Below, one piece after another: positions 3,043 to 48,333 of a stretch of DNA of 64,000 bases. This DNA comes from an uncultured Chloroflexia bacterium (GTDB lineage Bacteria; Chloroflexota; Limnocylindria; Limnocylindrales; CSP1-4). Position 1 is the stretch's first letter, and each line of letters starts with the position of its first letter. The DNA is taken from NCBI GenBank assembly GCA_963817095.1, contig CAWFND010000008.1, positions 229,911-293,910 on the forward strand, in the 5' to 3' direction. The position numbers were made by a program, and so were the translations under genes. The notes beneath the pieces are model-generated. The model ran no database searches, was not told the origin of the DNA, and worked only from the letters and a program-made list of their open reading frames with translations.

Positions 3043-3531
3043 TCAGAAGACGGGCTTCGTCACCATCACGAGAACGATCAGGACGATGAGGACCGTGAGG
3101 AGCATCCCGCCCTGCTGGAGCTTCTTGCCCGTCGCGGCGATCTCGGCGGCGACATCGGGCGGCGGCGGGCCGGGCGGCAGGTCCTTGGTGAGGTGGACCA
3201 TCTTCTCGGCATTCTTCGCCTGGACGAAGACCGCGAACACGATCGCGACCAGGTACAGCGAGATCCCGATCAGGAGCCAGTGCCACGCGGTATCGGTGAG
3301 GGGGTTCACGCCGAGGATGAGGATCAAGGCGAGCCCCGTGATGCCCTGGACGATCGCGCCGGGGATCACGATCCGGCGTTCGATCAGTTCACTCAGCGCG
3401 GCGGCGAACGCACCGTTCTGGGGACTCTTCTGGGCCTGGCTCGCGATGATCGGGAAGACGAACGTCGGGCCGAACACGACGATCGCGCCCAGGACGTGAA
3501 GGAACAGGAACAGCGCGAGCAACGGGGACAT
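3043..3531 (-). CDS. DUF2269-like integral membrane protein
   Basis: 162 aa with four hydrophobic helices. The MSPLLALFLFLHVLGAIVVFGPTF start is typical of the family. Confidence 0.55.
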   Translation of the reverse strand: MSPLLALFLFLHVLGAIVVFGPTFVFPIIASQAQKSPQNGAFAAALSELIERRIVIPGAIVQGITGLALILILGVNPLTDTAWHWLLIGISLYLVAIVFAVFVQAKNAEKMVHLTKDLPPGPPPPDVAAEIAATGKKLQQGGMLLTVLIVLIVLVMVTKPVF

Positions 3532-3653: not shown

Positions 3654-5777
3654 CTAGCCGACCCCGCGGGTCCGGTTCGCCACGAAGTCGACCAGGACGT
3701 ACTCGCCGAGGCGCTCCGGGGTCGCGTAGAACGCCCGGCCGCGGTTCATCCGCGTGACGAGCGCCACGAACTCCGCAAGCGCCCGCGATCGCTCGAGCAT
3801 GAACGTGTTGATCGTGATCCCGTCCCGGGTGCAGCGCTGGACCTCGCGGAGCGTCTCCTGGATCGTCCGGCGGGTTGGCGGGTAGCTGAACTCGACCTGG
3901 CCGTTCTCGAAGTGGGCGGTCGGCTCGCCGTCGGTGATCACGACGATCTGGCGGTCGCCGCCGCGCTGCCGGGCGAGGATCCGGCGCGCCAGCATCAGCC
4001 CGTGCTGGAGATTCGTGCCGTACTCGTAGCCGTGCCAGGTGAGCTCGGCGAGCGCCTCAGGCCGCAGCTCGCGGGCGTAGTAGGCGAAGCCGATGACCGA
4101 GAGATCGTCGTGCGGGAACTGGGTCCGGATCAAGGTATCCAGGGCGACGGCGACCTTCTTCGCGGCGACGAAGCAGCCGCGCAGGAGCATGGAGCGGCTC
4201 ATGTCGACGAGGAGGACCGTCGAGGTCCGGGTCATCTGCTCGGTCCGGAAGACCTCGAAGTCGGCGGGTGAGAGCTGAACGCCGGCCTCGCCGCGAGCCT
4301 GTCGGTCGTTCGGGGCGTTCTCCGGCCGGCGGAGGGCGTTCTCGATCGTGCCCCGGATGTCGAGATGGAACGGGTCCCCGAACTCGTACGGCTTCGTCGT
4401 CTCCTCTCGCTCCCCTCCCCGGCCGGCGCGGTCGATCCGATGCCCACCGAACGCATCCCGCGACAGCCGGGCGAAGAGATCGTCGAGGACCTTCTGGCCG
4501 ATCCGCCGGCTGCCGCGCGGCGTCAGCTCGAGGCGGTCGCCCTTGCGCGAGAGATAGCCGGCCTGCTCGAGCCGCCGAGCGAGCTCATCGAGCGCCTCGA
4601 GGTCGCGGGCGCTGTCCGGTCCGAGCAGCTCGCGGACCTCGTCGTGGTCGAGGCCCCCGAGGTCGGCCGGCTCCTCGATCGCATTCAGCTGGTCCTCGAG
4701 CCGGTCGAGCGACTGGAGCTGGCCGATCCGTTCCAGCGCCGGCTCCAGGCCGAGCGGCTGGTCGCCGCTGAACTCGTAGCCCTCGCCGAGCCCGTCCGGC
4801 ATCAGCTGGTCCATGTTGGACGCAAGCCGGGCCAGGTCCCAGCGCAGCCGATCGTCACGGAGCAGCGCGTCCATCATCGACTGGAGCTCGGCCCGCTGCT
4901 GGGGCGTCATGGACCGGAGGAGCGACGCCATCGCGGCCATCCGCTGGGTCAGCTGTTCGACGATGTCGTCCAGCGTCGTGGCGCCCGGAAAGAACCGCCC
5001 GTGCTGCGCGAGGAAGTCGTCGACCTGGTCCTGGCTCGGCTCGCGGCCGTCGAGCCGCTCCTCGAGCAGGCTGTTGAGGTCGCGGACCATGTCGCGGTTC
5101 GCGGCGAGCTCCTCGGGCGTCGTGCCCTGGATCGCCTCGGACAGCCCGTCGACGAATCGATCAAGCGTCTGCTTCCGGAGCCGCTCGGTCAGGGCATTGA
5201 ACCGGTCCCGTGCCTCCGGCTCCATGAAGTCGTACTCCTCGAGCCGGCGGATCCGTCCGCCAACGTCGCGAGGCAACGCGTCGAGCTGGTCGATCCGGCG
5301 GGCGGCGGCGTCGCGGAGCATCGCCCGGAGGGCCGGGTCCGCCGGCGAGCCGTCGGGCGGCGTGGCTGCCTCGTCCAGGCGTCGCTCGATCCCGGCCCGC
5401 TCCTGGGCGACGATGTCGTCGAGCTCCTGGCGGACGTCGGCGAGGACGTCGCGAAGCTGGTAGCGCTCCTGGAGCTCCTCGCGGCGACGGCGGAGTCGCT
5501 CTCGCAGCTCGTTCAGCCCGGCGAGGTCGCGACGAGTGGGATCGCTGGTCCGCCAGCCCCGCTCCATCAGCCGACGGAGCGCCTCCGACAGGTCGCCCTC
5601 GGCCATGACGTCGTCGGCCATCGCGTCCAGGATCTCGTCGGCGTCGAGCGCCGGGATCGTCTGGGTGCCGTCCCAGCGCGCGTACCGGGCCGCCCGGGCG
5701 AGCAGTGGATCGCGGGCGGCGGCGGCGGCGCCCGGCGCCTCGAGGTCGCGCGGATCCGGTGAGTACGACGCGGTCAC
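3654..5777 (-). CDS. vWA-domain protein (ChlD/BchD-like or CobT-like partner of the upstream AAA+ ATPase)
   Basis: A C-terminal vWA domain with the MIDAS motif VLLVDMSRSM. Start taken at GTG 5777, 17 nt after the stop of the upstream ATPase. The longer ORF extending to 5954 overlaps that ATPase and is low-complexity. Confidence 0.65.
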   Translation of the reverse strand: MTASYSPDPRDLEAPGAAAAARDPLLARAARYARWDGTQTIPALDADEILDAMADDVMAEGDLSEALRRLMERGWRTSDPTRRDLAGLNELRERLRRRREELQERYQLRDVLADVRQELDDIVAQERAGIERRLDEAATPPDGSPADPALRAMLRDAAARRIDQLDALPRDVGGRIRRLEEYDFMEPEARDRFNALTERLRKQTLDRFVDGLSEAIQGTTPEELAANRDMVRDLNSLLEERLDGREPSQDQVDDFLAQHGRFFPGATTLDDIVEQLTQRMAAMASLLRSMTPQQRAELQSMMDALLRDDRLRWDLARLASNMDQLMPDGLGEGYEFSGDQPLGLEPALERIGQLQSLDRLEDQLNAIEEPADLGGLDHDEVRELLGPDSARDLEALDELARRLEQAGYLSRKGDRLELTPRGSRRIGQKVLDDLFARLSRDAFGGHRIDRAGRGGEREETTKPYEFGDPFHLDIRGTIENALRRPENAPNDRQARGEAGVQLSPADFEVFRTEQMTRTSTVLLVDMSRSMLLRGCFVAAKKVAVALDTLIRTQFPHDDLSVIGFAYYARELRPEALAELTWHGYEYGTNLQHGLMLARRILARQRGGDRQIVVITDGEPTAHFENGQVEFSYPPTRRTIQETLREVQRCTRDGITINTFMLERSRALAEFVALVTRMNRGRAFYATPERLGEYVLVDFVANRTRGVG

Positions 5778-5793
5778 GAGCCGTCGCCGCCGC

Positions 5794-7242
5794 TCATCGC
5801 CGGTAGACGACGGCTCCGGAGCCCGAGCGGTCCTTGTTGATCCGCCGGGCGAGGTGGAGGCCCTCGAGGAGGAACTCGACTGCGGACGCCACGACCGCCG
5901 GCTCCTCCGCCCCGTCCGTGACGTCGAACGTGCCGAGCCGACGGACCGCGTCATGGAGCCCCGGGACCTCGCCCATCCAGTGGACGTACTCGCGGGACGG
6001 CACGCGATCGCCGGTCTCGACGACGAGCCCGTCCTCGAACGAGAGGACGACGTCGTCGAGGTCGTCGACGTCGACCCGCCGGCCGAACGTCGCGAACAGC
6101 GCCTTGGTGATCAGCCGCTCGACGATCCGCTCCTCGGGCGCGTCGTCGCCGACGGACTCCAGCTCGATCTTGCCGACGGTCGAGGCGATGACCGATCCGA
6201 GATCGGAGACGCGCGGCGCGGCCACGGTCTCGCCGAGTCGAACGGCCCGCCGCAGCGCGGCCGCCTCCAGCACTTCGGTGTTCGCGACGGTCACCCGGAC
6301 GCTGACGCCGGAGCGCTGGCTGATCTCGGGCGAGCGACGGGCGAGGTGGGTCAGCTCGGCCAGCAGCTCCTCCATGAAGCCCGGCACGGCGATCGCCGGC
6401 TCGTCGTCGCCGCCGACGAACCGATGCTTCTCCTGGCGGACGATCGCGAGCTCGTGGTCCAGGGTCCGCGGGTAGTGCGTCCGGATCTGCGACCCGAGCC
6501 GGTCCTTCAGCGGGGTGATGATCCGGCCGCGGCTCGTGTAGTCCTCCGGGTTCGCGCTCGCGACGACGAACAGGTCGAGCGGAAGCCGGACCTGGAAGCC
6601 GCGGATCTGGACGTCGCGCTCCTCGAGGATGTTCAGGAGTCCCACCTGGATCCGCTCGGCGAGGTCCGGCAGCTCGTTGATCGCGAAGATCCCGCGGTTC
6701 GAACGCGGGATCAGGCCGTAGTGGAGCGTCTGCTCGTCGCTCAGGTAGCGGCCCTCGGCGACGCGGATCGGGTCGACCTCGCCGATCAGGTCGGCGATCG
6801 TGATGTCCGGCGTCGCGAGCTTCTCGGCGTAGCGGCGGTCGCGTGGCAGCCAGTCGATCGGCGTGTCGTCACCGTGCTCGGCGACGATCGCCACGGCGCT
6901 CGGCGAGATCGGCGCGAGCGGATCGTCGTTCAGCTCACCGCCGCGAACGACGGGAATCGCCTCGTCCAGCAGCCCGACCAGCAGCCGCGCCAGCCGGGTC
7001 TTCGCCTGACCGCGCTCGCCGAGGAACACGAGATCCTGTCCCGCGATGATCGCGTTCTCGATCGCCGGCAGGACCGACTCGTCGTACCCGACGATGCCCG
7101 AGACGATCGGCTTCCCGGCTGCCAGACGGGCGAGCAGGTTCGCCCGAAGCTCCTCCTTGACCGAGCGTCCGGACCAGCCCGCGGCGCGCAGCTCCCCGAG
7201 GGTCTGCGGTCGGCGGGCGGGATCGACGGTCGTCGGTGGCAC
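5794..7242 (-). CDS. ChlI/BchI-like AAA+ ATPase (Mg-chelatase subunit I family)
   Basis: Contains IVGYDESVLPAIENAIIAGQDLVFLGERGQAKTRLARLL, which matches the ChlI signature IVGQ...GGVLI.GE.GTAKS. Sensor and arginine-finger region: NPEDYTSRGRIITPLKDRLG. Confidence 0.7.
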   Translation of the reverse strand: MPPTTVDPARRPQTLGELRAAGWSGRSVKEELRANLLARLAAGKPIVSGIVGYDESVLPAIENAIIAGQDLVFLGERGQAKTRLARLLVGLLDEAIPVVRGGELNDDPLAPISPSAVAIVAEHGDDTPIDWLPRDRRYAEKLATPDITIADLIGEVDPIRVAEGRYLSDEQTLHYGLIPRSNRGIFAINELPDLAERIQVGLLNILEERDVQIRGFQVRLPLDLFVVASANPEDYTSRGRIITPLKDRLGSQIRTHYPRTLDHELAIVRQEKHRFVGGDDEPAIAVPGFMEELLAELTHLARRSPEISQRSGVSVRVTVANTEVLEAAALRRAVRLGETVAAPRVSDLGSVIASTVGKIELESVGDDAPEERIVERLITKALFATFGRRVDVDDLDDVVLSFEDGLVVETGDRVPSREYVHWMGEVPGLHDAVRRLGTFDVTDGAEEPAVVASAVEFLLEGLHLARRINKDRSGSGAVVYRR

Positions 7243-7275
7243 GGGCGGCGAGCGTACGACCGGCTCCGCGAGGCG

Positions 7276-9942
7276 TCAAACGAGGGCGCCGGTGGGCACC
7301 GGTGCGGCCAGGACCTCCTCGATCACCTCGTCGATGGGGACCGCGGCGCCGGCCCGGAGCAGCACCTCTGCCCGATGCTCGCCGAGCCGCTCGACGGCCA
7401 GCTCGGCCGGGTCCGGCAGGTGGAGGATCTTGATCGGAGCCAGCATCAGGCCCCGCTCGCGCGCGAGCTCATGAACGGCGCCCGCGACCCGCGTGCCCAG
7501 CTCGGCGTCGCCATGGACGACCTGGAGCATCGCGGCCATCACCAGGTCGCGGGCGATCCCCGACCAGAACTCGCTCGCGGCGAAGATCCGCAGGCCGTCG
7601 ATCATGCGGGCCCAGGCCAGAGCCGGCTCGCCGAGCCGGAAGAGGATGCCTGCGAGGAGCGTTGACGCGTCGGCGATCTCGTTCCGCGAGGCCTGTCGTC
7701 GGTAGGCAGCGAGGTTCTCCTCCTGGAGCGCCCTGGCCCGGGCAACGTCGCCGGCCAGGAAGACTCCGAGCACGAGGGCCTGGCGCGCCCGGACCGCATC
7801 GTCCTCGCGATCCGCCGCGAGGTACAGGTCCAGGGCCTCCTGCTCGTGGCGGCGAAGGCTCTCTCCGTCGCGTTCCACCATCGACAGGAAGCCGCGGTCG
7901 TAGTGGGCGTCCGCGATCAGCAGCGGATCGCCCGTGCCCGAGGCGAGCTCCAGGCGTTCGTCGTAGGCGGTCCGGGACAGCCCCAGGTCGTCCATCCAGT
8001 AGGCCAGGCCACCCTGGGCGGCGAGCCCGCCGATCCGGTCGCGAACATCGCCGGCCGGCCGTGCGAGAAGCTCGGCGAGGATCGAGAGACCCTCGCGCAG
8101 CCGGCCGCGCTGCTGGAACCAGCGCCAGGTCGTTGCCATCAGTCGAAGGCCGACATCGGGCCGGTCGTTCGCCAACGCCCAGTCGATCGCCGCGCGCAGG
8201 TTGTACGACTCGTGGTCCAGCTGGTGGATCCGGGCCTCGCCCTCGGCACCGAGAATGCCCGAGCCGAGCCGCTCCGCAACCACGGTCATGAGATCCGCGT
8301 GCCGGAGCTGCGTCGCCACGAGCTCACCGCTCTCCTCGAGACGCTCGGCGGCGTACTCGCGAAGGAGCGGATGGAGCCCGAAGCGGGTCTCGTCGCCCCC
8401 GACCCCGGCGTCGTCGTCGGGCTCGACCCGCACCAGGCTCTTGTCGGCGAGGGATTCCAGCCCGTCCACGAGGTCGACCCCGAGGTCGCCGTCCGCGTTC
8501 GTGACGGCTTCGGCACCGTCGATCGTCCAGCCGCCGGCGAACACGGCCAACCGCCGGAACAGGCGGCGCTCCGCGTCGGACAGCAGATCGTGGCTCCAGG
8601 TGATCGCGCCCCGCAGCGTGCGCTGGCGCTCCGGCAGGTCGCGGCTGCCACCCGCCAGGTCCAGGCTGTGACCGAGTCGCTCGAGGATCTGGGCCGGACT
8701 CAAGGTTCGGACACGGGCTGCCGCGAGCTCGATCGCGAGGGGCAGGCCGCCGAGTCGGTCACAGATCGCGCGGATCGCGGCGCGACCCTCGTCGGTCAGG
8801 ACGAGGTCGGGTCGATGGCCGCGGGCCCGATCCTCGAACAGCTCGGCGCCCGCCGAACCGTCCAGCGGTGGAACCGGGAACCCGCGCTCGCCCGCGATCC
8901 GGAGCAGCTCGCGACTGGTCACGAGGATCCGGATCCCGGGCGCGGCCCGGACGAGCCCCGCGACGATGTCCGCGGCATCCGGAAGCAGCTGCTCGAGATT
9001 GTCGAGGACGAACAGCGCGGTCTGGTCCCGCAGGCTGGAGCGGAGCGCCTCTGCAACGGTCTGGTCCGTCGTCTCACGGACTCCGATCGTCACCGCGATC
9101 GCCGCCTCGAGCCGGGCGGGCTCACGCAGCGCGGCGAGGTCGACGAACCACGAGCCGTGCGGGAACCGGTCGACCGTGGTGCGGGCGACGCCCAGCGCGA
9201 GCCGGGTCTTGCCGCTCCCGCCGGGCCCGGTCAGGGTCACGATCCGGCTGGCCCCGAGTGCCTCGCGGATGAGGTCGATCTCCGCCTTGCGTCCCACCAG
9301 GGCCGTCACGTCGCCCGGCAGGTTCGACGGCGCATCGATCGTCCGGAGGCGCCGCGTGTCGTCGGCGGCCCCGGGGATCACGAGCCGGTGGAGCCGGGCG
9401 GGGTCGTCGAAGTCCTTGACGGCGCGCAGCCCCTCGTCTGCGAGCTCGACATCCTGGAGCGTCGACTCGCCCGCGAGTTCATCGCGAACCACATTCGCCA
9501 GCGCGTCGGACACGACGACCTGGCCACCGTTTCCGGCGGCCGAGATCCTGGCCGCGTAGTTCACGTCGATCCCGACGTAGTCCTCGGGATCGCCGTCCTG
9601 CCGACCGTGCCGGAGCCGGCCCTCGCCGATGTGCACGCCCATCCGGACACGGAGCGTCACGTCGCCGGGCCACGTCTCGGCGGCGAGGGCGTGCTGCGCG
9701 GCGGTCGCGGCCGTCACGGCGTCGATGGGTCGCTCGAATGCCGCGAAGAACGCGTCGCCCTCGGTCTTGACGACAGCGCCGCCGTTGGTCTCGATCGCGG
9801 TCCGCAGCAGGGCGTCGTGGCGCGCGACGATCCCCGCCCATGCCTCCGACCCGACGGCGCGCTCGAGGCGCGTGGATCCCTCGATGTCGGTGAACAGGAA
9901 CGTCACGGCCGGCCCGGTCGGGAGTCCCATCGCTCGCGTCAT
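7276..9942 (-). CDS. class III adenylate/guanylate cyclase domain, NB-ARC (STAND) ATPase and TPR multidomain protein
   Basis: N-terminal cyclase domain: FLFTDIEGSTRL...KTEGDAFFAAF...GVHIGE. Walker A: LTGPGGSGKTRLAL. C-terminal TPR-like helical repeats. No LuxR HTH is visible. Its ATG overlaps the VOC gene stop in an ATGA arrangement. Confidence 0.8.
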   Translation of the reverse strand: MTRAMGLPTGPAVTFLFTDIEGSTRLERAVGSEAWAGIVARHDALLRTAIETNGGAVVKTEGDAFFAAFERPIDAVTAATAAQHALAAETWPGDVTLRVRMGVHIGEGRLRHGRQDGDPEDYVGIDVNYAARISAAGNGGQVVVSDALANVVRDELAGESTLQDVELADEGLRAVKDFDDPARLHRLVIPGAADDTRRLRTIDAPSNLPGDVTALVGRKAEIDLIREALGASRIVTLTGPGGSGKTRLALGVARTTVDRFPHGSWFVDLAALREPARLEAAIAVTIGVRETTDQTVAEALRSSLRDQTALFVLDNLEQLLPDAADIVAGLVRAAPGIRILVTSRELLRIAGERGFPVPPLDGSAGAELFEDRARGHRPDLVLTDEGRAAIRAICDRLGGLPLAIELAAARVRTLSPAQILERLGHSLDLAGGSRDLPERQRTLRGAITWSHDLLSDAERRLFRRLAVFAGGWTIDGAEAVTNADGDLGVDLVDGLESLADKSLVRVEPDDDAGVGGDETRFGLHPLLREYAAERLEESGELVATQLRHADLMTVVAERLGSGILGAEGEARIHQLDHESYNLRAAIDWALANDRPDVGLRLMATTWRWFQQRGRLREGLSILAELLARPAGDVRDRIGGLAAQGGLAYWMDDLGLSRTAYDERLELASGTGDPLLIADAHYDRGFLSMVERDGESLRRHEQEALDLYLAADREDDAVRARQALVLGVFLAGDVARARALQEENLAAYRRQASRNEIADASTLLAGILFRLGEPALAWARMIDGLRIFAASEFWSGIARDLVMAAMLQVVHGDAELGTRVAGAVHELARERGLMLAPIKILHLPDPAELAVERLGEHRAEVLLRAGAAVPIDEVIEEVLAAPVPTGALV

Positions 9943-10712
9943 CCTCGCACCCCTGAACGGACGACGACGGTCGCCCCCGGCAGGTCGACGGCGCGATCCG
10001 GGACGACCCGATCGACCTCGAGCACGACAGTCGCGGCGGGGGATGAGCCAGTGCCGGCGCCCGGCACACGGAACCGGACCGTTTGCTCACCGATGGCGAG
10101 CGTCGGACTGCCGTTGCCGTCGGCGGCCACGGCGATGTCGAGAGCCCTCGCGAACGACCGCGTGGCCGGCTCGAGGCCGGCAGCGACCTCCAGCGTCACA
10201 AGGCGGACGCGGCCACCGATCGGGTGGACGAATCGGCCGCGTTCTGCCCGTTCCTCCGGCGTCCATTCCGCACCGGCTCCGTCGTGTTCGATGAGGAACG
10301 GCGAGGCCGGACCGAGGACGGCCGGATGCGCGAGTCGCCATCGAACCACACGCGCGTCCGGGCGACGGCGTTCCCCGTCGATCAGCCGGGACCAGGCGGC
10401 GTCACCGGTCGGCATTCGCTCGGTGTCCCCGGCGAGGTCGTCCGTCGCGCAGGCCCACGTCGCAAGCCCTCCGCCGGCGGCCAGGGCCGCCAACGTCGGC
10501 CGCCCGATCCAGGTCGTCGCCGCCAGCGCCGGATCGAACACGCCGATCAGCTCGAGATAGGTGTCGCCCAGCCAGACCAGGCGGTTGAACGTCCCGAGCC
10601 GCTCGTGGCGGCCGCCGCCGCCGGCCGCCAGCCCAGCCTCCCGTTTCAGCCGGTCGACGGCCGCATCCGGGTCGGTCGTCGCAAGGACCAGGTGGTCGAT
10701 GCCGGTCAGCAT
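9939..10712 (-). CDS. VOC (glyoxalase/bleomycin-resistance/dioxygenase) family protein
   Basis: Starts MLTGIDHLVLATTDPDAAVDRLK, with a second beta-alpha-beta-beta-beta module (FLIEHDGAG). Start chosen at ATG 10712, which overlaps the upstream stop as TGATG. The N-terminal extension in the ORF table is Arg-rich. Confidence 0.6.
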   Translation of the reverse strand: MLTGIDHLVLATTDPDAAVDRLKREAGLAAGGGGRHERLGTFNRLVWLGDTYLELIGVFDPALAATTWIGRPTLAALAAGGGLATWACATDDLAGDTERMPTGDAAWSRLIDGERRRPDARVVRWRLAHPAVLGPASPFLIEHDGAGAEWTPEERAERGRFVHPIGGRVRLVTLEVAAGLEPATRSFARALDIAVAADGNGSPTLAIGEQTVRFRVPGAGTGSSPAATVVLEVDRVVPDRAVDLPGATVVVRSGVRG

Positions 10713-11620
10713 CAGTACAGTGGCGACCGGTCCCGGCCGGACCGGGTCGCGCCGAACCCGTCGATGGCCCCCCGGACCGACTCGACGTCGACGACGCCGT
10801 CCACCGCCAGCCGACGCAGCAGCCCGGCTCGGTCGGCCTGGTCCTGCTCGAGATCGCCGGACCTCCGCTCGAGCCGGATCGCGAGCTCCGGCATGATGCC
10901 CCATGAGAAGTGCTCCAGGACATCCGCCCCCTCGTCCCGAACCGCGATGACGGCGGGCGGCAGACGCTGGACGTGGCCGTGCTCGTCGCGCCCGACCGGG
11001 CGGGCGTAGTGAGCCGCGACGACCCGTCGCCGGACGTGGCCGTCCGGTCCGCGCTCGGGGCGGACGACGAGGATCAGCCCGAGGTAGGACAGCTCGTCGT
11101 CGGTCAGGCCCACGGACGGGGACTTGAGGACGTCGTGGATGTCCTCAAGCCGGTCCGCATGGATCGTCGCCCCGATCCCGTAGCCGATCGAGGCCGCCCG
11201 GATCAGCGTTCTCGCGGCGGGGCCCCAGGTGTAGAGCGGGAGGTGGGCCGAGAGCTCGGCCGCGACGAGGTACGCGGAGGCGGGCGTGACCGGCTGGGCG
11301 GGCGCCACTTCGGCGGATGTGCCCTCCGACCGCCACCCCAGCGCCGTCGCCTCCGGCAGCCACGCGAAGTCCTCCTCGACGCCGGCGAGGTCCACTCGTC
11401 TCGTCGTCGGCGGCAGGAAGTCGAGCAGCGCGTCGAACAACGTCGTCTTGCCGGCACCCTGGGCCAGACCCCCGACGACCAGCGGTAGCCGCGCCTCGAC
11501 GAGCAGCCAGGCGAGACCGGCGAGCTCCGCGTCGAGGACCCCGCCGACGATCAGCTCGACGATCGACCGGCGCGGCGGCGCGATCGCGGCGCGGAGCCAG
11601 GTGAGGCGCTCATCGTCCAT
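10712..11620 (-). CDS. P-loop NTPase, divergent CpaF/VirB11-like secretion-ATPase fold
   Basis: Walker A VVGGLAQGAGKTTLFDALLDF and a GYGIGATIHADRLEDI block that resembles the CpaF GHDGsmsTiHAns motif. The antisense ORFs are R-rich. Confidence 0.45.
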   Translation of the reverse strand: MDDERLTWLRAAIAPPRRSIVELIVGGVLDAELAGLAWLLVEARLPLVVGGLAQGAGKTTLFDALLDFLPPTTRRVDLAGVEEDFAWLPEATALGWRSEGTSAEVAPAQPVTPASAYLVAAELSAHLPLYTWGPAARTLIRAASIGYGIGATIHADRLEDIHDVLKSPSVGLTDDELSYLGLILVVRPERGPDGHVRRRVVAAHYARPVGRDEHGHVQRLPPAVIAVRDEGADVLEHFSWGIMPELAIRLERRSGDLEQDQADRAGLLRRLAVDGVVDVESVRGAIDGFGATRSGRDRSPLY

Positions 11621-11669
11621 CGGCCCGATGATGACAGGCCCTGGCGGATCGTCGGACTACGATGCCGGC

Positions 11670-12263
11670 ATGGACGAGGCGCTCGAGATCGTCCCGCTGA
11701 CGCCGGACCGCTGGGACGACGTCGCCGCGCTCTTCGGCGAAGGGGGCGACCCGAAGACCTGCTGGTGCATGTACTGGCGGCTGCGATCGAAGGACTGGTC
11801 GTTCGCGAACGCCGCCGCGACCCGCGATGGCCTCCACGCCCTCGTCGACGAGGGGCGCGACCCGGCGCCCGGGCTGCTCGCGTATCGGGGCGGCCGGGCG
11901 GTGGGCTGGGTCAGCGTCGCGCCGCGCGAGGACTACGAGCGACTCACGAATTCCCGCGTCCGGCCGAAGATCGATGACACGCCGGTCTGGTCGGTCGTCT
12001 GCTTCGTCGTCTCGAAGACGGCCCGGCGGGAGGGCCTGACGACGCCGCTCCTCGCGGCGGCGACGGCCTACGCCGCCGACCACGGCGCGCCCGCCCTCGA
12101 GGCCTATCCGGTCGATCCCGGAGACGGGCGAGTCCCGGCCGCACTCGGCTATACCGGGATCCTCTCGACGTTCGAGACCGCCGGTTTCGAGGTTGTCCAA
12201 CGCATCGATTCGCCACAATCGACCGTCCGCCGGGTCATCGTTCGACGGACGATCGATCCGTGA
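11670..12263 (+). CDS. GNAT family N-acetyltransferase
   Basis: MDEALEIVPLTPDRWDD ... acetyl-CoA-binding region RREGLTTPLLAAATAYAADHGA. Divergent from the P-loop gene with a 49-nt spacer. Confidence 0.7.
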   Translation: MDEALEIVPLTPDRWDDVAALFGEGGDPKTCWCMYWRLRSKDWSFANAAATRDGLHALVDEGRDPAPGLLAYRGGRAVGWVSVAPREDYERLTNSRVRPKIDDTPVWSVVCFVVSKTARREGLTTPLLAAATAYAADHGAPALEAYPVDPGDGRVPAALGYTGILSTFETAGFEVVQRIDSPQSTVRRVIVRRTIDP

Positions 12264-20236: not shown

Positions 20237-22606
20237 CTACGAGACGCCCTTCTCGTGGAGGATCGCCCAGACCTTCTGCGGGGTGATCGGGATGTCGATG
20301 TTGCGGACGCCGAGATGCCAGAGGGCATCGACGACGGCGTTCGCGATCGCCGGCGGGGCGCCGACGGTGGCCGACTCCCCGACGCCCTTGGCCCCGATCG
20401 GGTGGTGGGGTGACGGCGTGACCGTCTTTGCGGTCTCCCAGGCGGGCGTCTCGACGGCAGTCGGGAGCAGATAGTCCATGAACGTGCCGGCGAGGTTGTT
20501 GCCGTTCTCGTCGTAGGTGATCTCCTCGTACAGAGCCGGCGCGAGCCCCATCGTGAGCCCGCCGTGGATCTGGCCGTCGACGATCATCGGGTTGATGATG
20601 TTGCCGCAGTCGTCGACGGCGACAAAGCGGCGGACGTGGACCTCACCAGTGCCCTTGTCGATGTCGACGACGCAGATGTACGAGCCGAACGGGAAGGTCA
20701 GGTTCGGCGGGTCGTAGTAGTCGACCGCCTCGAGGCCCATCTCCATCCCCTGCGGGTAGTTCGTGTAGGCCGCGAAGGCGATCTCCTGGATCGTCTTCGC
20801 CCGCTCGGGCGAGCCCTTGACGAAGAACTTGCCGTTGGTCCACTCGAGATCGTCCTCGGACGCCTCGAGGAGGTGGGCCGCCAGCTTGCGGGCCTTGTCC
20901 TTGATCTTCCGCGACGCCATCGCAGTCGCTGCCCCGGACGTCGGCGTCGACCGCGAGCCGTACGTCCCAACGCCGTACGGCGCTGTGTCGGTGTCGCCGT
21001 ATTCGATCTTGATGTCCTGAACGGGGAAGCCGAGCTCCTCGGCGATGATCTGGGCATAGGTCGTCTCGTGGCCCTGGCCCTGCGTCTGCGCTGCGATCCT
21101 CGCGAGGACCTTGCCCGTCGGGTGGACGCGGATCTCGCACCCGTCGTTCATCTTCAGGCCGATGATGTCGAAGTCGTGCGACGGGCCCGCCCCGACGATC
21201 TCGGTGAATGAGCAGATGCCGATGCCCATCAGCTCGCCGCGAGCCTGCTTCTCGGCCTGCTCCCGGCGCAGGCCGGCGTAGTCGATCAGGTCCATCGCCT
21301 TCTGGAGCGCAACCGGGTAGTTGCCCGAGTCGTACGACCAGCCGGTCGGGCTCTTGTACGGGAACTGCTCCGGCTGGATGAAGTTCTCCATCCGGAGCTG
21401 GGCAGGATCCTTGCCGAGGTCATGGGCCAGGATGTCGACCATCCGCTCGATGGCGTGAACGGCCTCCGTCACCCGGAACGAGCAGCGGTAGGCAACGCCG
21501 CCCGGCGGCTTGTTCGTGTAGACGCCATCGACCTCGACGAACGCGTCCGGGAAGTCGTACGAGCCGGTGATGACGTTGAACAGGCCGGCCGGGAACTTCG
21601 ACGGGTCGGCGGCCGCGTCCGAGTAGCCGTGATCCGCGATCGTCCGGACCTTGAGGCTGGTGATCTTGCCGGCCTTGGTCGCACCGAGCTCGGCGTGGAT
21701 GTGGTAGTCGCGGGCGAACGAGTCCGCCTGGAGGTTCTCGGAGCGGTCCTCGATCCACTTCACCGGCTTGCCGGTCGTGAGCGAGGCAACGACTGCGAGG
21801 ACGTAGCCCGGGTAGACCGGGACCTTGCCGCCGAACCCGCCACCGATGTCGTGGGTCTTGACCCGGATGTTCTGCTCGGGAAGGCCGGCGACGAGGGCGA
21901 GGACGGTCCGGATGACGTGCGGTGCCTGCGAGGTCATGTGCAGGGTGAGCTGGCCGCGGACGGCGTCCCAGTCGGCGACGCAGCCGCAGGTCTCGATCGA
22001 GGCAACATGGATCCGGGGGATGTAGATGTCCTCTTCGATCCGGACGTCGGCCGCGGCGAGCGCAGCGTCGGTCTTCGCCTTGTCGCCCGATTCCCAGTGC
22101 CAGATGTGGTTGTTCTGCTTGTCGGGGCCGCGGTCCGGGCGGAGGACGAATGCGTCCGGCTCGAGCGCCTTGTGCGGGTCGACGATGACCGGCAGCGGCT
22201 CGTAGTCGACCAGGACGGCGGCCACGCCGTCGGCGGCGGCATAGCGGGAGGTGGCGACGACGGCCGCGACCTCCTGGGCCTGGTACATGACCGTGGTCGT
22301 CGGCAGGACCATCTGCTTGTCGCCGGCGAGGGTCGGCATCCAGTGGAGACCGGCCTTCTCGAGGTCGGCGCCGGTGATCACCGCGGCCACGCCCGGGACC
22401 TTCAACGCCTCGCTGGCGTCGATGCCCTTGATCGTCGCGTGGGCGTACGGGCTGCGGACGATGTCGAGCCAGAGCTGGCCCGGCAGGTTGAAGTCGTCGA
22501 TGTACTCGCCCTTGCCGCGGATGAACCGCGGGTCTTCCTTGCGCTTGACGGAATGGCCCATGCCCCCGACCTCGGGGGTCGTCTGAAGGGGTGCCTCTGT
22601 CGTCAT
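20237..22606 (-). CDS. coxL: form I carbon-monoxide dehydrogenase large subunit CoxL (Mo-Cu)
   Basis: Active-site loop [10 protein letters not shown], the form-I signature. A 787-aa MoCo-binding XDH-family protein. Start at ATG 22606 with GGAGG 7 nt upstream. Confidence 0.9.
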
Positions 22607-22607
22607 C

Positions 22608-23130
22608 TCACGCCTCCGCCGCGACCGCTTCGCCAGCCCCGGCCGGCGCCGCGGCACTCGCGCTGAGCTCGCCGGCGGCCTGCTGGATCGCCTTCACGAT
22701 GTTCACGTAGCCGGTGCAGCGACAGAGGTTGCCGCTGATCCCCTGCCGGATCTCGGCTTCCGATGGGCTCGGGTTCTCGTCGAGCAGCCAGGCGGCCTGC
22801 ATGATCATGCCCGGGGGTGCAGAACCCGCACTGGAGACCGTGCTGGTCCCAGAACGCCTGCTGGAGCGGGTGGAGGGTGGCCCCGTCGACCATGCCCTCG
22901 ATCGTCTTGATCTCGGCCCCGTCGGCCTGGACCGCGAGCATCGTGCAGGACTTCGCGCTCCGGCCATTCACGTGGACCGTGCACGCGCCGCAGTTGCTCG
23001 TGTCGCAGCCGATGTGCGTTCCGGTCAGCCCGAAGACGTCTCGGAGCAGGTGGACGAGCAGGAGCCGTGGCTCGACGTCGGCCTCGTGGGCCTCGCCGTT
23101 GACCGTGACGGTGATGTGCTGTGTCGTCAT
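22608..23130 (-). CDS. coxS: CoxS (2Fe-2S) small subunit, interrupted by a 1-nt insertion at about 22810-22817
   Basis: N-terminal [13 protein letters not shown]...LQCGFCTPG in one frame and MIMQAAWLL...[16 protein letters not shown] in the +1 frame. The junction lies in a CCCGGGGG run. Confidence 0.8.
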
Positions 23131-41527: not shown

Positions 41528-42940
41528 TCATGTCGCTCGCGTCAGGGGTTGGGCCGTCGCCGGGTCGCCACCCAGCTCGAGCGGCGCGGGCGGCGCCACG
41601 CTCCGGATCGCCTGGCTCGATGCGCGGTCGCCGGCGTCGGCGGATGCGGCCGCCTCGCCACCGCGCCGGACGTCGCTCGACCGCACGCCCGCCAGGATCT
41701 CGCCGAGCCGCTCGAGGCTGGCCACCGTGCCGGCGGGGACGAAATCGTCGATGTACGGCAAGGCGGCCCGCATCCCGCCCGCGAGCGGCTCGTAGCCGGG
41801 CGTCCCGGCCAGCGGGTTGAGCCAGACGAGGCGGTGGCAGTTCCGGCGGAGCCGGGCGGTCTCGGTCGCGACGAGAGCCGGATCGCCGCGATCCCAGCCG
41901 TCCGACACGACGATGACGACGCCGCTCGTCCGAAGCGTCCGGCGCGCCCAGTGCAGGTTGAAGTCCCGGAACGATTCCCCGATCCGCGTCCCGCCCGCCC
42001 AGTCGTTGACGCTGTCGGCGACCTTCGCGAGGGCTCGGTCGCGATCCCGGTCGCGAAGGAGCCGTGTCACGCGGGTGAGCCGCGTCCCGAAGACGAACAA
42101 TTCGGTCTTCACCGACGACGCCGCCGACAGCGCCTGGACGAACCGGAGGAGCAGCCGCGAGTGACGCTCCATCGAGCCGGAGATGTCGCACAGGACGACG
42201 ATCTGGCGGGGCCGTTTCGTCGGGCGCCGCCAGACCCACTCGGTGAACTGGCCGCCGGTCGAGATGTTCCGCCGCATCATCGTCCGCGGCGAGAGCAGCC
42301 GGCCGTGGTGGTGGAGCTCGTAGCGGCGGGTCCGGCGCAGCTCCAGCCGCGGCTCGAGCAGGTCGACGAGCCGCTCCGCGTCGCGCAGCTCCGCCGCCGT
42401 CATCCGGTCGAAGTCGCGATGGCGGAGCAGCTCGCTCGACGAGTAGGCCGTCGGCGCCGCGATCACCCCGTCGATCTCGCTGTCGTCGTCCTCGTCGGAC
42501 GAGATCGGCATCGGGATCCCGTCGATCCGGTTGGGGTCCTCGCCGATCGTGCCCTCGTCACCGGCCGGCGAGGCGACGCCGTCCTCGGCCTGGGCCGCGT
42601 CGGGATCGTCGGCGGCCACGCCCGGGCCGTCGGTGTTCGGGCGCTTCCGGCCACGCCGCCGCCACCAGCGGGCGAAGACCTTGTCGTAGACCTCGCGGTC
42701 GTCGCGGCGCCGGACGAAGACCGCCTGGCCGGCGGCCCGGACCGTGTCGCGATGGCCGATGTCGATGAGGCCGAGGGCACGGGCGAAGTCGACGGACGCC
42801 CCGAGGTCGGTCGCGAGCCCGGCGGCCCGCAGCGCCCGGCCGAAGCCGACCGACTCCGCGAGCAGGCGGCGACCGTCGACCTCCGGGCCCCACGGCGCGC
42901 GGACGATCGCCGGGTCGTTCGGGATCCCGCGGCGTCGTCA
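41528..42940 (-). CDS. coxE: CoxE-like vWA-domain protein, apparent frameshift ~30 codons in (~42860)
   Basis: vWA MIDAS IVVLCDISGSMERHSRLL. The N-terminal block GRRLLAESVGFGRALRAAGLATDLGASVDFARALGLIDIGHRD continues the same frame upstream of the listed ORF. The only ATG (42940) is in the adjacent frame. Confidence 0.7.
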
Positions 42941-42967
42941 TCGCCGGCTGCTCGGTCGGGCCGCCGA

Positions 42968-43908
42968 TCAGGCGGTCGCGCCGGCCTCCGCGAGGTAGGC
43001 CCGGGCGGTGTCGCCGCGGACCCGCCGGATGTCCTCCTCGTACTTGAGGACGACGCCGAGCGTCTCGTCGACGACCTCGCCGGTCAGCTCGCGCGAGCCG
43101 AGCGACAGGAGCGCCGCCGCCCAGTCGAGCGTCTCGGCGATCCCCGGCACCTTCGTCAGGTCGGCCTCGCGCAGGCGATGGACGAAGCCGACGACCTCGC
43201 GAGCGAGCCGCTCCGGCGCCTCGGGAACTCGCGCGAGCACGATCTCGAACTCCTTCTGGGCCGTCGGGTAGTCGATCCAGTGGTAGAGGCAGCGGCGCTT
43301 CAGCGCGTCGTGGACCTCGCGGGTCCGGTTCGAGGTGAGGATCACCCGCGGCGGGCGGGCCGCCTTGATCGTGCCGATCTCCGGGACCGTGACCTGGAAG
43401 TCCGACAGGATCTCGAGGAGGTACGCCTCGAACTCCTCGTCGGCCCGGTCGATCTCGTCGATCAGGAGGACCGGGCGGCTCGCCGTCCTCGTCGGCCTCG
43501 AGGGCCTGGAGGAGCGGCCGCCGGATCAGGAACTCCGGGCCGAAGATGTCGTGGGCGTTGGCCCGGTCGGCCTGGCCGCGGGCTTCGAGCAGCCGGATCT
43601 CGAGCATCTGGCGCGGGTAGTTCCACTCGTACACCGCGGCGTTGACGTCGAGGCCCTCGTAGCACTGGAGCCGGATCAGGCGGCTGCCGAGACTGGCGGC
43701 GAGGACCTTCGCGAGCTCGGTCTTGCCGACGCCCGGCCTCGCCTTCGAGGAGGAGCGGCCGGCCGAGCCGGAGCCCGAGGAACACGGCCGTCGCGAGCGA
43801 GCGATCGCAGACGTAATCGCGGGCGCGGAAGCTCGCCACGATCCCGTCGACCGAGTCGAGGGCGTCGCGTCCGGCCGTGCCGGAGGAGGGTTCGGTGACC
43901 TGGGACAT
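42968..43908 (-). CDS. coxD: CoxD / MoxR-like AAA+ ATPase, broken into three frames (~43730 and ~43487)
   Basis: MSQVTEPSSGTAGRDALDSVDGIVASFRARDYV...LLLEGEAG | RPGVGKTELAKVLAASLGSRLIRLQCYEGLD...ALEADEDGEP | PVLLIDEIDRADEEFEAYLLEILSDFQVTVPEIG...ILTSNRTREVHDALKRRCLYHWIDYP. The second junction is GG versus G. Confidence 0.7.
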
Positions 43909-43918
43909 GGCGGCGATC

Positions 43919-46329
43919 CTACACCGCGACCTTGCCGTCCGCGCGCGGTGGCGGGAGGGGTGCCCCGAGGGCGGACAGGGCGCGCGCGATCGCGTCGTCG
44001 ATCGAAAGGGCGTCGCCCTCGGCCCAGGCGGCCTGCCACGACGCCTCGTCGCCGGACTCGCGCGCCATCCGGATCTCGGCATCGACCCGCCGACGGTCGG
44101 CGATCAGCATCGAGTAGCGGGCGTCTCGCCGGATCGCGGCCGCGGCGCCCCACAGCGTCGCCGCGGCGCAGCGATCGACCCGGAGCGCGACGATCCCGGC
44201 CGCCCCGTCGATCGCCTGGGCGACGATCCCCTTGGCGCCGATCCGGGCGGCGATCGCCGAGCGCCTCCGCCTGGAGCACGGCCGCGCGGTCAACGTTGCC
44301 TGCGGTCGCCTCGACGAACCCGAGGTCCGACAGGGCATTCGAGGTCTCGAGCCGGTCGCCGAGGTCGCGCGCGGTGGACAGGGCCGCCTCGCAGCTCGAC
44401 CCGCGCGCCGTCGAGATCGCCCGCGTCGAACAGGACGAGGGCGAGGTTGTGCCGAACGACGGCGACGCGCTGCCGATCGCCGAGCCGGTCGCGGGTCGAG
44501 ATCGCCTCTCGGAGCATCTCGGCCGCCCCTTCGAGGTCGCGTTCGTCGCGGGCAACGAGCGCCAGGTTGCCGAGCGACACGGACGCGCCGGAGTCGTCGC
44601 CGAGGCGCGCGCCGGATCGCGAGGCTCTCCTCGAACAGCACCCGGGCCTCGTCCGGCCGGCCGCCGAAGTGGATGACCCCGCCGAGCGTGTTGAGCGACG
44701 CCGCGACCGCCGCCTCGTCGCCGAGCGAGCGGCGGATCTCGAGACCCTGGCGGCAGCGCGCCTCGGCCTCGTGCGAGATCGCCGGTGTCGAGCCCGATCA
44801 GGCCGAGCTGGTTCAGCGTCGACGCGGCCTCGGCCTGGAGCCCGAGCTCGAGCCGGATGTCGAGCGCCTCCTCGAGCATCGTCCGCGCCCGACCGAAGTC
44901 GCTCTGCCAGTTCGCGAGCATCCCCGCGCCGTGCAGGGCGCGTGCCCGATCCGCGGTCCGGTCGGGCGGACCGAGACGCAGGGCGGCGTCCAGCCAGATC
45001 CGGCCCTCGGCGAGTCGACCGCGGGATCGCCAGTACTCGGCGAGGGCGCCGGTCATCCGCAGGAGGAACCGGCCCTCTCCGGCGGCCCGGGCGCGGTCGA
45101 GGGACGCGACGAGATCGGCATGGACGAAGTCGAGCTGATCGAGCAGGTCCCGTCGCGATCGCCGATGCGAGCTCGGCGTCCGCCATCTCGCACAGCGCGA
45201 GCAGGTCGTTCGCGCGTGCCCACATCGCCGCGGTCGCCTCGCCGCTGGCCTCGAGGCGACGGATCGCGTCCTCGCGCACGAGGGCCGGGAGCTCGTACTC
45301 GCGGACGTCGCCGCCGCGCGGATCGTCGGGTCCGGTGGCGGCCTCGGCCTCCAGGTCGTCGGGGCCGGCGCGAAGGAGACCGGCGGCGGCCAGCCGTCGG
45401 AGGGCCGGACCGACGTCCGGCGGCAGCTCGGACAGCCCGTGCGCCTGCGCTCGCTCGCCGAACGTCCGGACGTGGCGCTCCCGGAACGGGACGCCGAACA
45501 CCGAGATCCGGCGGTACAGCAGTCGGTCGTCCGGGGTCAGCTGGTCGTGGCTCCACTGGATCGTCGCGACGACCGGATCGAGCCGCTCATGGACCTGCTC
45601 GACCAGGCGATGCGCGGGAAGCATCCGCAGCAGCGGACCCGCCAGCTCGATCGCGAGGGGCAGGCCGTCGAGGTGGGCGACGAGCCGGGCGATCGACGGC
45701 GCGGTTCGCTCGTTGATCTCGACGTCCGCGCCGGCCCGCGTGGCTCGATCGATCAGGAGCTCCACCGCCGGGCTCGCCGCCACCGTCGCGGCGTCGTCGG
45801 TCTCGCGGGGCACCCGGAGCGTATCGACGGGGACGGACCGCATCCCCGTTCGGTCGATCGCGATCCGCGACGTCGCGAGCACGCGAAGCGGCGGTGCCAG
45901 GCTGACGAGCTCGTCGAGCCGCGCAAGATCGCGGGGCGACACCTCCGCCCGGTCGAGGACGACGAGGGCCGGCTCGTCGCCGATCGTCTCGGCAACGGCA
46001 TCCGCGACGTGATCCGGCTCACCGCCCGCGAGCCCGAGGGCCACCGCGGTCGCGGCGACGAGGCCGCCGTCTCGCGACGCCTGGCCCAGCGTGACCCACG
46101 CGATCCGCCCGCCGAATGGGACGGCGACCCGGCGCGCGACCTCGATCGCGAGACGGGTCTTGCCGACGCCGCCCAGCCCGCTCAGGAGGATGATCCGCGG
46201 CTTGCCGCGGATCAGGGCATCGGCGACGTCGGCGACCAGCTCGGCCCGCCCGATCAGGGTCGTCTCGACCTCGGGTGGGGCAGCGTCCGGCCAGGCCGGC
46301 GGCGGGGTTGGTGTGACGGATCGCGGCAT
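43919..46329 (-). CDS. NB-ARC (STAND) ATPase plus TPR-repeat protein, multiply frameshifted
   Basis: N-terminal LLSGLGGVGKTRLAIEVARR...LVVLDRAEV...LRVLATSRI is paralogous to the ATPase domain of 7276..9942. TPR-like blocks follow in two other frames (LNQLGLIGLDTGDLARGRGAL..., ...ASWQAAWAEGDALSIDDAIARAL). Confidence 0.5.
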
Positions 46330-47475: not shown

Positions 47476-48333
47476 TCAGCGGAGCCGGTCGAGCGCCGCG
47501 CCGATCGCCCGCTTCGTGTACACCGCCGCCATCGCCGTCCGGTAGGCGCTGTCGGCGTGGATGTCGCCGTTCACGGTCACGCCGTCGGTCGCGTGGGCAG
47601 CCGCCGCGGCGATCGCCTCGGCGCCGCCGTCGGTCCCGGCGAGGGCCGCCTCGACCGCACGCGCCCGGTACGGCGCCTCGCCGACCCCGGTGAGGGCAAC
47701 GGATGCCTTCGAGATCCGGCCGTCGCCGCCGACGATCGCGACCACCGCGACGCCCACGATCGAGTAGCCGGAAGCCTTCTGGCTCATCGCCACGTAGGCC
47801 GAGCCCGCGTCGTCACGCGGTCCGGGCAGGCGGACCTCCGTGACGATCTCGTCGTCGGCGAGCGCCGTCGAGAACGCCCCGGTGAAGAAGCCGTCCGCGG
47901 CGTAGACCTTCTCGCCGCGCGTCGAGCGCGCGACGATCTCCGCATCGAGGGCAAGCAGGACGGCCGGCAGGTCCGATGCTGGATCGCAATGGGCGACCGC
48001 GCCGCCGACCGTGCCTCGGTTCCGGACCTGGACGTCGCCGATGTCCGGCAGGGCATCCCCGAGCAACCCGTAATGACGCGCGTCGGACGCGAGCAGCTCG
48101 CTGTACGTCGTCAGCGCCCCGACGGCCATCCGGCCGTCCGCCATCCGGCGGACGCCCTTCAGCTCGGCGATCCGGCCGATGTCGACGAGCCGCTCCGGGC
48201 TCGCCAGGCGGAGCTTCATCAGAGGCAGGAGGCTCATCCCGCCGGCGATGACCTTTGTGCCGGGCGTCCCGACGAGGCGCAGCGCCTCGTCGAGCGAGGC
48301 GGCCCGGGTGTAGTCGAATGTGTTCGGGATCAT
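47476..48333 (-). CDS. coxM: form II CoxM-like FAD-binding medium subunit
   Basis: MIPNTFDYTRAASLDEALRLVGTPGTKVIAGGMSLLPLMKLRLA... The listed ORF has a 153-codon R-rich spurious extension. The true ATG overlaps the coxL stop as ATGA. Confidence 0.85.
   Translation of the reverse strand: MIPNTFDYTRAASLDEALRLVGTPGTKVIAGGMSLLPLMKLRLASPERLVDIGRIAELKGVRRMADGRMAVGALTTYSELLASDARHYGLLGDALPDIGDVQVRNRGTVGGAVAHCDPASDLPAVLLALDAEIVARSTRGEKVYAADGFFTGAFSTALADDEIVTEVRLPGPRDDAGSAYVAMSQKASGYSIVGVAVVAIVGGDGRISKASVALTGVGEAPYRARAVEAALAGTDGGAEAIAAAAAHATDGVTVNGDIHADSAYRTAMAAVYTKRAIGAALDRLR

Follow-up and report, generated by a model that had tools for sequence, protein, structure and literature searches.

A probable five-gene operon in the Limnocylindrales joins a FlaI-like ATPase gene to an AAA+/VWA gene pair, with VOC and cyclase genes as candidate accessory cargo

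Introduction

Do overlapping stop and start codons between neighbouring genes identify proteins that act together? The question is raised by three minus-strand genes in a 64,000-nucleotide stretch of DNA from an uncultured Chloroflexia bacterium of the Limnocylindrales lineage CSP1-4 (GenBank assembly GCA_963817095.1, contig CAWFND010000008.1, positions 229,911–293,910 of the forward strand), the whole of which is referred to here as the window. These genes encode a P-loop protein related to secretion ATPases, a small VOC-fold protein, and a large protein with a class III adenylyl cyclase domain, an NB-ARC ATPase domain and a TPR-like solenoid, and their coding sequences overlap at both junctions. 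The original prediction, made from the sequence letters, treated them as a tightly coupled three-gene unit that could serve in cyclic AMP (cAMP) signalling or in nucleoside triphosphate (NTP) sensing. Had this been borne out, it would have added a new signalling module.

The evidence presented here is against that module. The conserved partners of the P-loop gene are an AAA+ ATPase gene and a VWA-domain gene that lie just outside the three-gene interval, and the interval is probably the 5' part of a five-gene, co-directional minus-strand operon extending from 11620 to 3654. We favour, with a probability of roughly 0.62, a reading in which this operon has a stable core of the P-loop, AAA+ and VWA genes (genes 1, 4 and 5), the VOC and cyclase genes (genes 2 and 3) are optional accessory cargo, and the proteins act by the mechanisms proposed below. 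The locus is a clear worked example of why, in a high-G+C genome, a functional unit cannot be deduced from overlapping stop and start codons. It also draws attention to an uncharacterised family of truncated FlaI-type ATPases that is recurrently linked, in many Chloroflexota, to a gene pair of the Rv0958/Rv0959 type.

Operon organization

The window has a G+C content of ~70%, and screening of its open reading frames (ORFs) by G+C content at each codon position, with a third-position value above 0.85, gives an unbroken chain of minus-strand genes. Gene 1 (10712–11620, 302 aa) encodes the P-loop protein, and its codon-position G+C values (0.78/0.50/0.92) have the pattern of real genes in this window. 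Gene 2 (9939–10712, 257 aa) encodes a Glyoxalase_3 VOC-fold protein, and gene 3 (7276–9942, 888 aa) encodes the class III cyclase/NB-ARC/TPR protein, whose cyclase catalytic domain (9373–9915) is located by Pfam and PDB matches, by its motifs and by its Foldseek fold. Gene 4 (5794–7242, 482 aa) codes for a ChlI/BchI-like AAA+ ATPase of the MoxR clade, similar to Rv0958, and gene 5 (3654–5777, 707 aa) for a helical plus VWA protein similar to Rv0959. All five are on the minus strand, and for the three genes first described the ORFs and both overlaps can be read directly in the sequence with a strong coding signal.

Genes 1 and 2 meet at the sequence TGATG (10714–10710), in which the TGA stop (10714–10712) and the ATG start (10712–10710) have one base in common, and genes 2 and 3 meet at ATGA (9942–9939), where the start (9942–9940) and stop (9941–9939) codons create a 4-nt overlap. 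The gaps along the chain from gene 1 to gene 5 are -1, -4, 33 and 16 nt. Consensus scans found no terminator-like site between 11620 and 3654 and no promoter match inside the operon, although these patterns may not suit this phylum and the scans are weak evidence. Because genes 4 and 5 follow at 33 and 16 nt with no terminator-like site, the interval first described splits the five-gene operon mid-way. The co-transcription and translational coupling that had been drawn from the overlaps are probably right, as judged from the operon structure and the tight gaps. The same 4-nt or 1-nt overlaps occur at six of the 20 other same-strand junctions in the window (at 14654, 15763, 19156, 40357, 56706 and 57701), and we regard them as compact packing that is normal for this genome and not as the mark of a dedicated three-protein machine.

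Upstream of the operon, non-coding DNA is limited to a 49-bp spacer (11621–11669) between gene 1 and a divergent, plus-strand GNAT acetyltransferase gene (11670–12263), and no sigma-70-like match was found in it. The corresponding spacers of relatives are 6–50 bp long (at 9994–10001 in locus L003, for example). With a spacer of 49 bp here, and of as little as 6 bp in relatives, the promoters of both genes presumably lie largely within coding sequence.

Gene order within the Limnocylindria

A scan of GTDB with one genome per species, using an alignment of the P-loop protein as query, identified 207 relatives, and the best 80 loci, all of which have synteny of the Limnocylindria type, were compared by tblastn with every protein of the window. 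Arrangements were counted over the 78 distinct loci whose sequence extends 1.2 kb or more downstream. At 60 of these the P-loop gene is followed within 500 bp by the AAA+ gene and then by the VWA gene, with neither a VOC nor a cyclase gene present. Twelve loci have one of the two: a VOC gene separates the P-loop and AAA+ genes at six, a cyclase gene does so at five, and a truncated contig ends in the P-loop and cyclase genes. Both are present at three loci (L013, L021 and L030) in the order P-loop, cyclase, VOC, AAA+, the reverse of that in the window; two loci have other insertions, and one (L085) lacks the AAA+ gene. The genes are tightly packed in every arrangement. The window's own order of P-loop, VOC and cyclase is found at none of the 78 loci, and since the reversed order is present at only three, the three genes essentially do not co-occur elsewhere as the unit originally proposed; the VOC and cyclase genes are present or absent independently of each other.

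In a neighbour-joining tree of the P-loop protein, all of the outgroups have the simple P-loop–AAA+ arrangement, the P-loop–cyclase–VOC–AAA+ arrangement lies at the base of the ingroup, and the other states are dispersed over the tree, the window itself being nested among genomes with the P-loop–cyclase–AAA+ arrangement. The scatter of states suggests a single early acquisition followed by many independent losses.

The cyclase gene also occurs elsewhere. Of three homologues examined on long contigs, one (67% identical) lies in a P-loop locus. The other two (63% and 66% identical) have unrelated neighbours, and the P-loop, VOC, AAA+ and VWA genes are all absent within 6 kb of them. The cyclases resident at the locus are 60–81% identical among themselves and are no more similar to one another than they are to the two outside homologues.

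We note that the contigs of L013, L021 and L065 are labelled Verrucomicrobiia or Saccharimonadales and yet contain the Limnocylindria-type block, with P-loop identities of 52–71%; they are probably mis-binned contigs in those metagenome-assembled genomes (MAGs).

The P-loop, AAA+ and VWA genes outside the Limnocylindria

The locus belongs to a region of ~15 kb that is collinear across the Limnocylindria, with ABC transporter, RsgA and GNAT genes upstream and DUF2269 and aldolase-like genes downstream. Because the whole region is collinear, adjacency of the P-loop and AAA+ genes proves little in this group, and we therefore examined a sister clade of the P-loop family. Its members are 30–37% identical to the P-loop protein, have an N-terminal "WWG" motif, and are found in Thermomicrobiales, Sphaerobacter, Dehalococcoidia and Chloroflexia MAGs, where NCBI sometimes names them "type II secretion system protein E".

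In sister-clade locus L087 the order of P-loop, ChlI-like AAA+ and Rv0959-like VWA genes is kept, with gaps of ~100 bp and 26 bp, and the flanks are unrelated to those in the Limnocylindria, with extracytoplasmic function (ECF) sigma and anti-sigma genes upstream and an IS66 transposase gene downstream. In L088 a Peptidase_M29 gene (9081–10184) lies between the P-loop and AAA+ genes, which is the slot that the VOC and cyclase genes occupy in the clade of the window. About 43 metagenomic loci of the sister clade extend far enough downstream to be scored, and in 19–21 of them the P-loop gene is immediately followed by the AAA+/VWA pair.

Two single loci differ. In a Sphaerobacter MAG (L086, 8001–14141) genes for PrkA, DUF444 (YeaH, VWA-like) and SpoVR come after the P-loop gene in place of the usual pair. 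We considered PrkA–YeaH–SpoVR as an alternative AAA+/VWA partner and rejected it, as L086 is its only occurrence and L115, L117 and L121, which have the same upstream amidohydrolase gene, contain the usual pair. In L143 a gene for an XRE helix-turn-helix (HTH)/NB-ARC/TPR STAND protein (4956–7295, minus strand) is divergent from, and just upstream of, a sister-clade P-loop/AAA+ operon; as a single case it was set aside as a second STAND association.

The P-loop protein

The P-loop protein is poorly served by existing family models. Pfam gives nothing significant (PF00437 is unmatched at E ≤ 0.1), and NCBIfam gives weak local matches to TadA, FlaI and VirB11 models near the Walker A motif, with scores below the family cut-offs (24.9 bits against 373 for TIGR03819, and 22 against 550 for the FlaI model NF058587). 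A phmmer search of the PDB matches the archaeal GspE structure 2oap (E = 3e-5, query residues 20–185) and FlaI (E = 1e-3). Homologues are numerous: 1,146 of the scored candidates match at E ≤ 1e-3, and almost all of these are unnamed or "hypothetical". The closest 120 are 68–100% identical, and an exhaustive search of representatives places 373 clusters at 50% identity in the family at E ≤ 1e-10. An AlphaFold2 model built from a 56-sequence alignment has a mean predicted local distance difference test (pLDDT) score of 94.3. Foldseek aligns this model to the C-terminal ATPase domain of FlaI (4ihq/4ii7) and of archaeal GspE (afGspE, 2oap) with E ~1e-16 and query-normalised template modelling (TM) scores of 0.68–0.69; CpaF/TadA reach 0.48–0.50 on the same normalisation, and PilT and VirB11 are lower still. 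The homologues, the model and the FlaI/afGspE fold together indicate that the ORF is real, as originally supposed, and that its product belongs to the secretion-ATPase superfamily and corresponds to the catalytic half only. The description of this protein as CpaF-like named the right superfamily, within which FlaI and archaeal GspE have the closer fold.

The protein thus has the same RecA-like C-terminal ATPase fold as FlaI and archaeal GspE (and, more distantly, CpaF/TadA, PilB, PilT and VirB11), together with the Walker A GK[TS], Asp-box Glu, Walker B Glu and His-box His residues. It differs from them in its size of ~300 aa, in lacking the N-terminal (PAS-like) domain, and in the linkage of its gene to a ChlI-like AAA+/VWA pair and not to secretion genes. 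The sequence alignment begins at FlaI/afGspE residues ~229–236, and only three short helices precede the core in the model. No genes for a platform protein (FlaJ, TadBC or PilC type), pilin, secretin or secretion partner were found in the neighbourhood in the window or at the loci of eight annotated relatives. We conclude that these proteins are an unannotated and well-conserved family that has the catalytic domain of a secretion ATPase and neither the N-terminal half nor the pilus or secretion partners.

The P-loop had been called degenerate, and in part it is. Compared with that of FlaI, the Walker A motif (51-GLAQGAGKTT-60) has one extra residue and is without the first glycine; in the Asp box "AG" stands in place of "ED", and alanine or threonine takes the position of the Walker B aspartate. 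The catalytic residues, however, are near-invariant across 83 Limnocylindria and 61 sister-clade loci, namely K58 and T/S59 of Walker A, E83 of the Asp box, E122 of Walker B and H154 of the His box, and from these residues the protein looks catalytically competent in this lineage. Several distant representatives of 50%-identity clusters lack the Walker A lysine or the whole GKT. Representatives P0131, P0134, P0137, P0143, P0145, P0151, P0175, P0178 and P0230 have lost the Walker A GK[TS] and retain the other conserved residues of the fold; such members may be pseudo-ATPases.

The AAA+ and VWA proteins

The gene 4 product matches the Pfam families AAA_5, Mg_chelatase and Sigma54_activat, the BchD/ChlD and BchI/ChlI models of NCBIfam, and the ChlI structure 6l8d (E = 2e-5). 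The gene 5 product matches VWA_2 in Pfam and the C-terminus of cobaltochelatase-like models in NCBIfam, and its orthologues bear PF27532 (Mb0984_helical), PF27098 (Rv0959_3rd) and VWA_2. Both proteins score far below the chelatase equivalog cut-offs (32 bits against 467 for BchI, 37 against 500 for BchD, and 27–30 against 779 for the cobaltochelatase model), and no gene for a large subunit like ChlH or CobN is present in the neighbourhoods inspected. The pair is thus an AAA+ plus VWA combination like the Mg-chelatase ChlI/ChlD proteins and the MoxR/VWA pairs of the Rv0958/Rv0959 type, from which the Chloroflexota version differs in being preceded by a FlaI-like gene.

Across Limnocylindria loci L001–L085 the AAA+ proteins are 76–97% identical, compared with 49–82% for the P-loop proteins and 62–95% for the VWA proteins, a level of identity that reflects unusually strong constraint on an uncharacterised protein.

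In vWA-MoxR systems, as outlined in a review (PMC7159879), the VWA domain captures a target that the AAA+ ring then remodels; a text search of the same source finds neither "PilT" nor "VirB11". The titles and abstract openings of papers naming Rv0958 or Rv0959 point to none on the function of the pair, and literature searches on cyclase-STAND-TPR proteins and on Rv0958/Rv0959 turned up no functional study of the pair or the trio.

The cyclase-STAND-TPR protein

The annotation of gene 3 as a cyclase/NB-ARC/TPR protein without the usual LuxR-type HTH stands. Pfam finds Guanylate_cyc (PF00211, E = 2e-12, 47.5 bits against a cut-off of 21.9) and NB-ARC (25.6 bits against 23.5), as well as AAA_22 and AAA_16, and finds no GerE/LuxR or other HTH at E ≤ 0.1; NCBIfam AfsR, FxSxx_TPR and HaaT models align across aa 195–772. 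The cyclase domain is closest to those of Ma1120 (E = 2e-20) and Rv1900c, and all six class III cyclase residues are present: the metal ligands D19 and D63, the substrate pair K59 and D121, and N128 and R132. The Lys–Asp pair predicts specificity for ATP. Walker A (GPGGSGKT, 239–246) and Walker B (LFVLDN, 310–315, with D314) motifs are also present. Of the 120 best homologues, 119 retain both the cyclase and the Walker motifs.

The AlphaFold2 model (pLDDT 87.5) comprises the cyclase domain (aa ~10–190), the NB-ARC domain (aa ~215–430), a winged helix, a TPR-like solenoid of about fifteen paired helices (aa ~541–830), and an acidic tail in which the C-terminal 45 aa form three short helices. 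The best whole-chain match in a Foldseek-type fold search is the archaeal STAND-TPR protein 6mfv (E = 4e-13), followed by Apaf-1, and the cyclase domain superimposes on Ma1120 with TM scores of 0.84–0.91 (normalised by target length). In the mycobacterial proteins Rv0386, Rv1358 and Rv2488c, too, a class III cyclase at the N-terminus is joined to a STAND/AAA ATPase and to helical repeats, and Rv0386 is an active adenylyl cyclase (PMC3466318). The gene 3 protein differs from these in lacking the C-terminal LuxR/GerE HTH and in having the canonical Lys–Asp substrate pair, and it differs from NB-ARC/TPR STAND proteins such as 6mfv, Apaf-1 and those of the AfsR type in bearing a cyclase effector and not a DNA-binding (SARP) or CARD domain. 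As there is no DNA-binding domain, its output is presumably cAMP only.

By analogy with these families, the protein would be a STAND switch, in which binding of a ligand or protein to the TPR arm frees the NB-ARC domain to exchange ADP for ATP and to oligomerise. Oligomerisation would pair the cyclase domains, whose activity requires dimerisation, and so lead to synthesis of cAMP.

A second NB-ARC/TPR STAND gene is present in the window (42558–46329, minus strand). Its product is 33% identical to the STAND part of the gene 3 protein and has no cyclase domain. In tblastn alignments it is broken into two frames near 45127–45143, and the overlapping ORFs 44290–46329 and 42558–45056 both have TPR matches; the split suggests a frameshift, and hence a pseudogene or an assembly error.

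The VOC protein

The gene 2 product, as its VOC annotation implied, has a full-length match to the Pfam Glyoxalase_3 domain (PF13468, E = 5.8e-31, 108.3 bits against a gathering cut-off of 25.1, residues 6–179). The longest ORF at this position (9939–10904, 321 aa) is an artefact of the high G+C content, and the start was placed at the ATG at 10712–10710 because homologues begin at the same MLxGIDH motif. The protein has no characterised close relatives, its sole sequence match in the PDB being the uncharacterised 3p8a (E = 0.14); it is presumably a small metal-dependent enzyme. Both this and the cyclase-STAND-TPR protein are ordinary members of large families.

The copy in the window is unusual among VOC proteins of this locus. 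It is 48–57% identical to those of relatives, compared with 66–85% among the relatives themselves. The N-terminal ~190 aa align well with the other locus VOC proteins, and the MLxGIDH motif and later Glu and His residues are conserved; the last ~70 aa (9939–10150) do not align with any of the eight others, and the protein is ~10 aa shorter. The low identity and different C-terminus suggest that it is either a copy that has moved and been remodelled or the product of a second acquisition. The divergence of the C-terminus is consistent with a rearrangement that would have made the ATGA overlap with the cyclase start.

Functional interpretation

The reading that we favour, a stable core of genes 1, 4 and 5 with genes 2 and 3 as accessory cargo, implies the following history. 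The VOC and cyclase genes would have entered the spacer between genes 1 and 4 in the ancestor of a single Limnocylindrales sub-clade, most probably with the cyclase gene first and the VOC gene second, and would then have been lost singly or together many times; in the lineage of the window a VOC copy would have come to lie upstream of the cyclase gene with its C-terminus remodelled. Judged by its linkage, the gene 1 protein most likely works with the AAA+/VWA pair as an ATP-dependent partner or client, and the pair would act in the manner of chelatase and MoxR systems, the VWA protein capturing a target and the AAA+ ring remodelling it.

Several points weigh against this interpretation. The adjacency of the P-loop and AAA+ genes in the Limnocylindria could be inherited gene order rather than function, the AAA+/VWA pair has been lost from L085, and ~22 of the ~43 metagenomic sister-clade loci lack the pair after the P-loop gene. 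In mycobacteria the Rv0958/Rv0959 pair is not known to have a P-loop neighbour in the H37Rv annotation. The operon can have its VOC gene at either of two positions, and cyclase and VOC genes persist at the slot in ~15 genomes, which could signify selection for their co-expression. Finally, all of the mechanisms are ones that we infer from homology.

A bolder interpretation, which we advance only tentatively, is that the truncated FlaI-type ATPase, the ChlI-like AAA+ protein and the Rv0959-like VWA protein constitute an undescribed three-component, ATP-driven remodelling machine that appears confined to, or greatly expanded in, the Chloroflexota. The spacer after gene 1 would be a preferred landing site for cargo (the cyclase-STAND gene, the VOC gene at two positions, and the M29 peptidase gene) that is co-expressed with the machine and possibly feeds into it. 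Should the trio be a real machine, it would offer a way to approach what the Rv0958/Rv0959-type pair does. Rather less probable is the opposite view, that the five are independent housekeeping and signalling genes without functional links, and that their order, including that of the P-loop, AAA+ and VWA genes, is inherited synteny in a slowly rearranging region. The collinear neighbourhood in the Limnocylindria would be expected on this view, as would the absence of the pair near the P-loop gene at about half of the sister-clade loci and at L085 and L086; however, the P-loop–AAA+–VWA order is kept in L087, L088 and ~19 metagenomic loci with wholly different flanks and gaps of 70–400 bp, and inserted foreign genes fall between genes 1 and 4 without splitting the block across strands.

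The idea that the P-loop ATPase, the VOC protein and the cyclase-STAND protein form a dedicated cAMP-signalling or NTP-sensing module, in which stoichiometric co-translation matters, now appears improbable. The two overlapping junctions do suit it, as do the recurrence of VOC and cyclase genes at the slot in related genomes (together in the window, L013, L021 and L030) and the two positions of the VOC gene. These are offset by the uniqueness of the window's arrangement, by the repeated independent losses that the tree implies, by the cyclase homologues in unrelated contexts, and by the frequency of like overlaps elsewhere in the window. Least credible of all is a reading of the slot as a small hotspot of conflict or defence, with the cyclase-STAND-TPR protein as an Avs- or Pycsar-like immune sensor making a cyclic-nucleotide alarm and the VOC protein or M29 peptidase as alternative cargo. 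Varied cargo at one fixed position between conserved genes fits this picture, the combination of STAND NTPase and TPR sensor is a typical one for immune sensors, and in PADLOC the cyclase domain has weak matches to Pycsar cyclases (PycC, best E = 2.8e-8). The same search gives no match for the other four operon proteins, no recognisable effector and no complete system, though, and no phage or mobile-element genes flank the slot; moreover the Lys–Asp pair predicts ordinary cAMP synthesis, and the cyclase family is very large, with 7,999 of 8,000 scored candidates matched and many of them named "predicted ATPase/class 3 adenylate cyclase".

Other features of the window

Downstream of gene 5, the genes for the DUF2269 protein (3043–3531) and the aldolase-like protein (1497–2909) are also on the minus strand. 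Rfam and tRNA scans of the whole window gave no matches. Two further minus-strand ORFs (20237–22657 and 48330–50750) each encode 806 aa, and their equal length and 45% identity indicate that they are paralogues. Their products contain an N-terminal motif, KRxEDPRFxxGxGxYxDD, which resembles that of the large subunit of the CoxL/xanthine dehydrogenase family.

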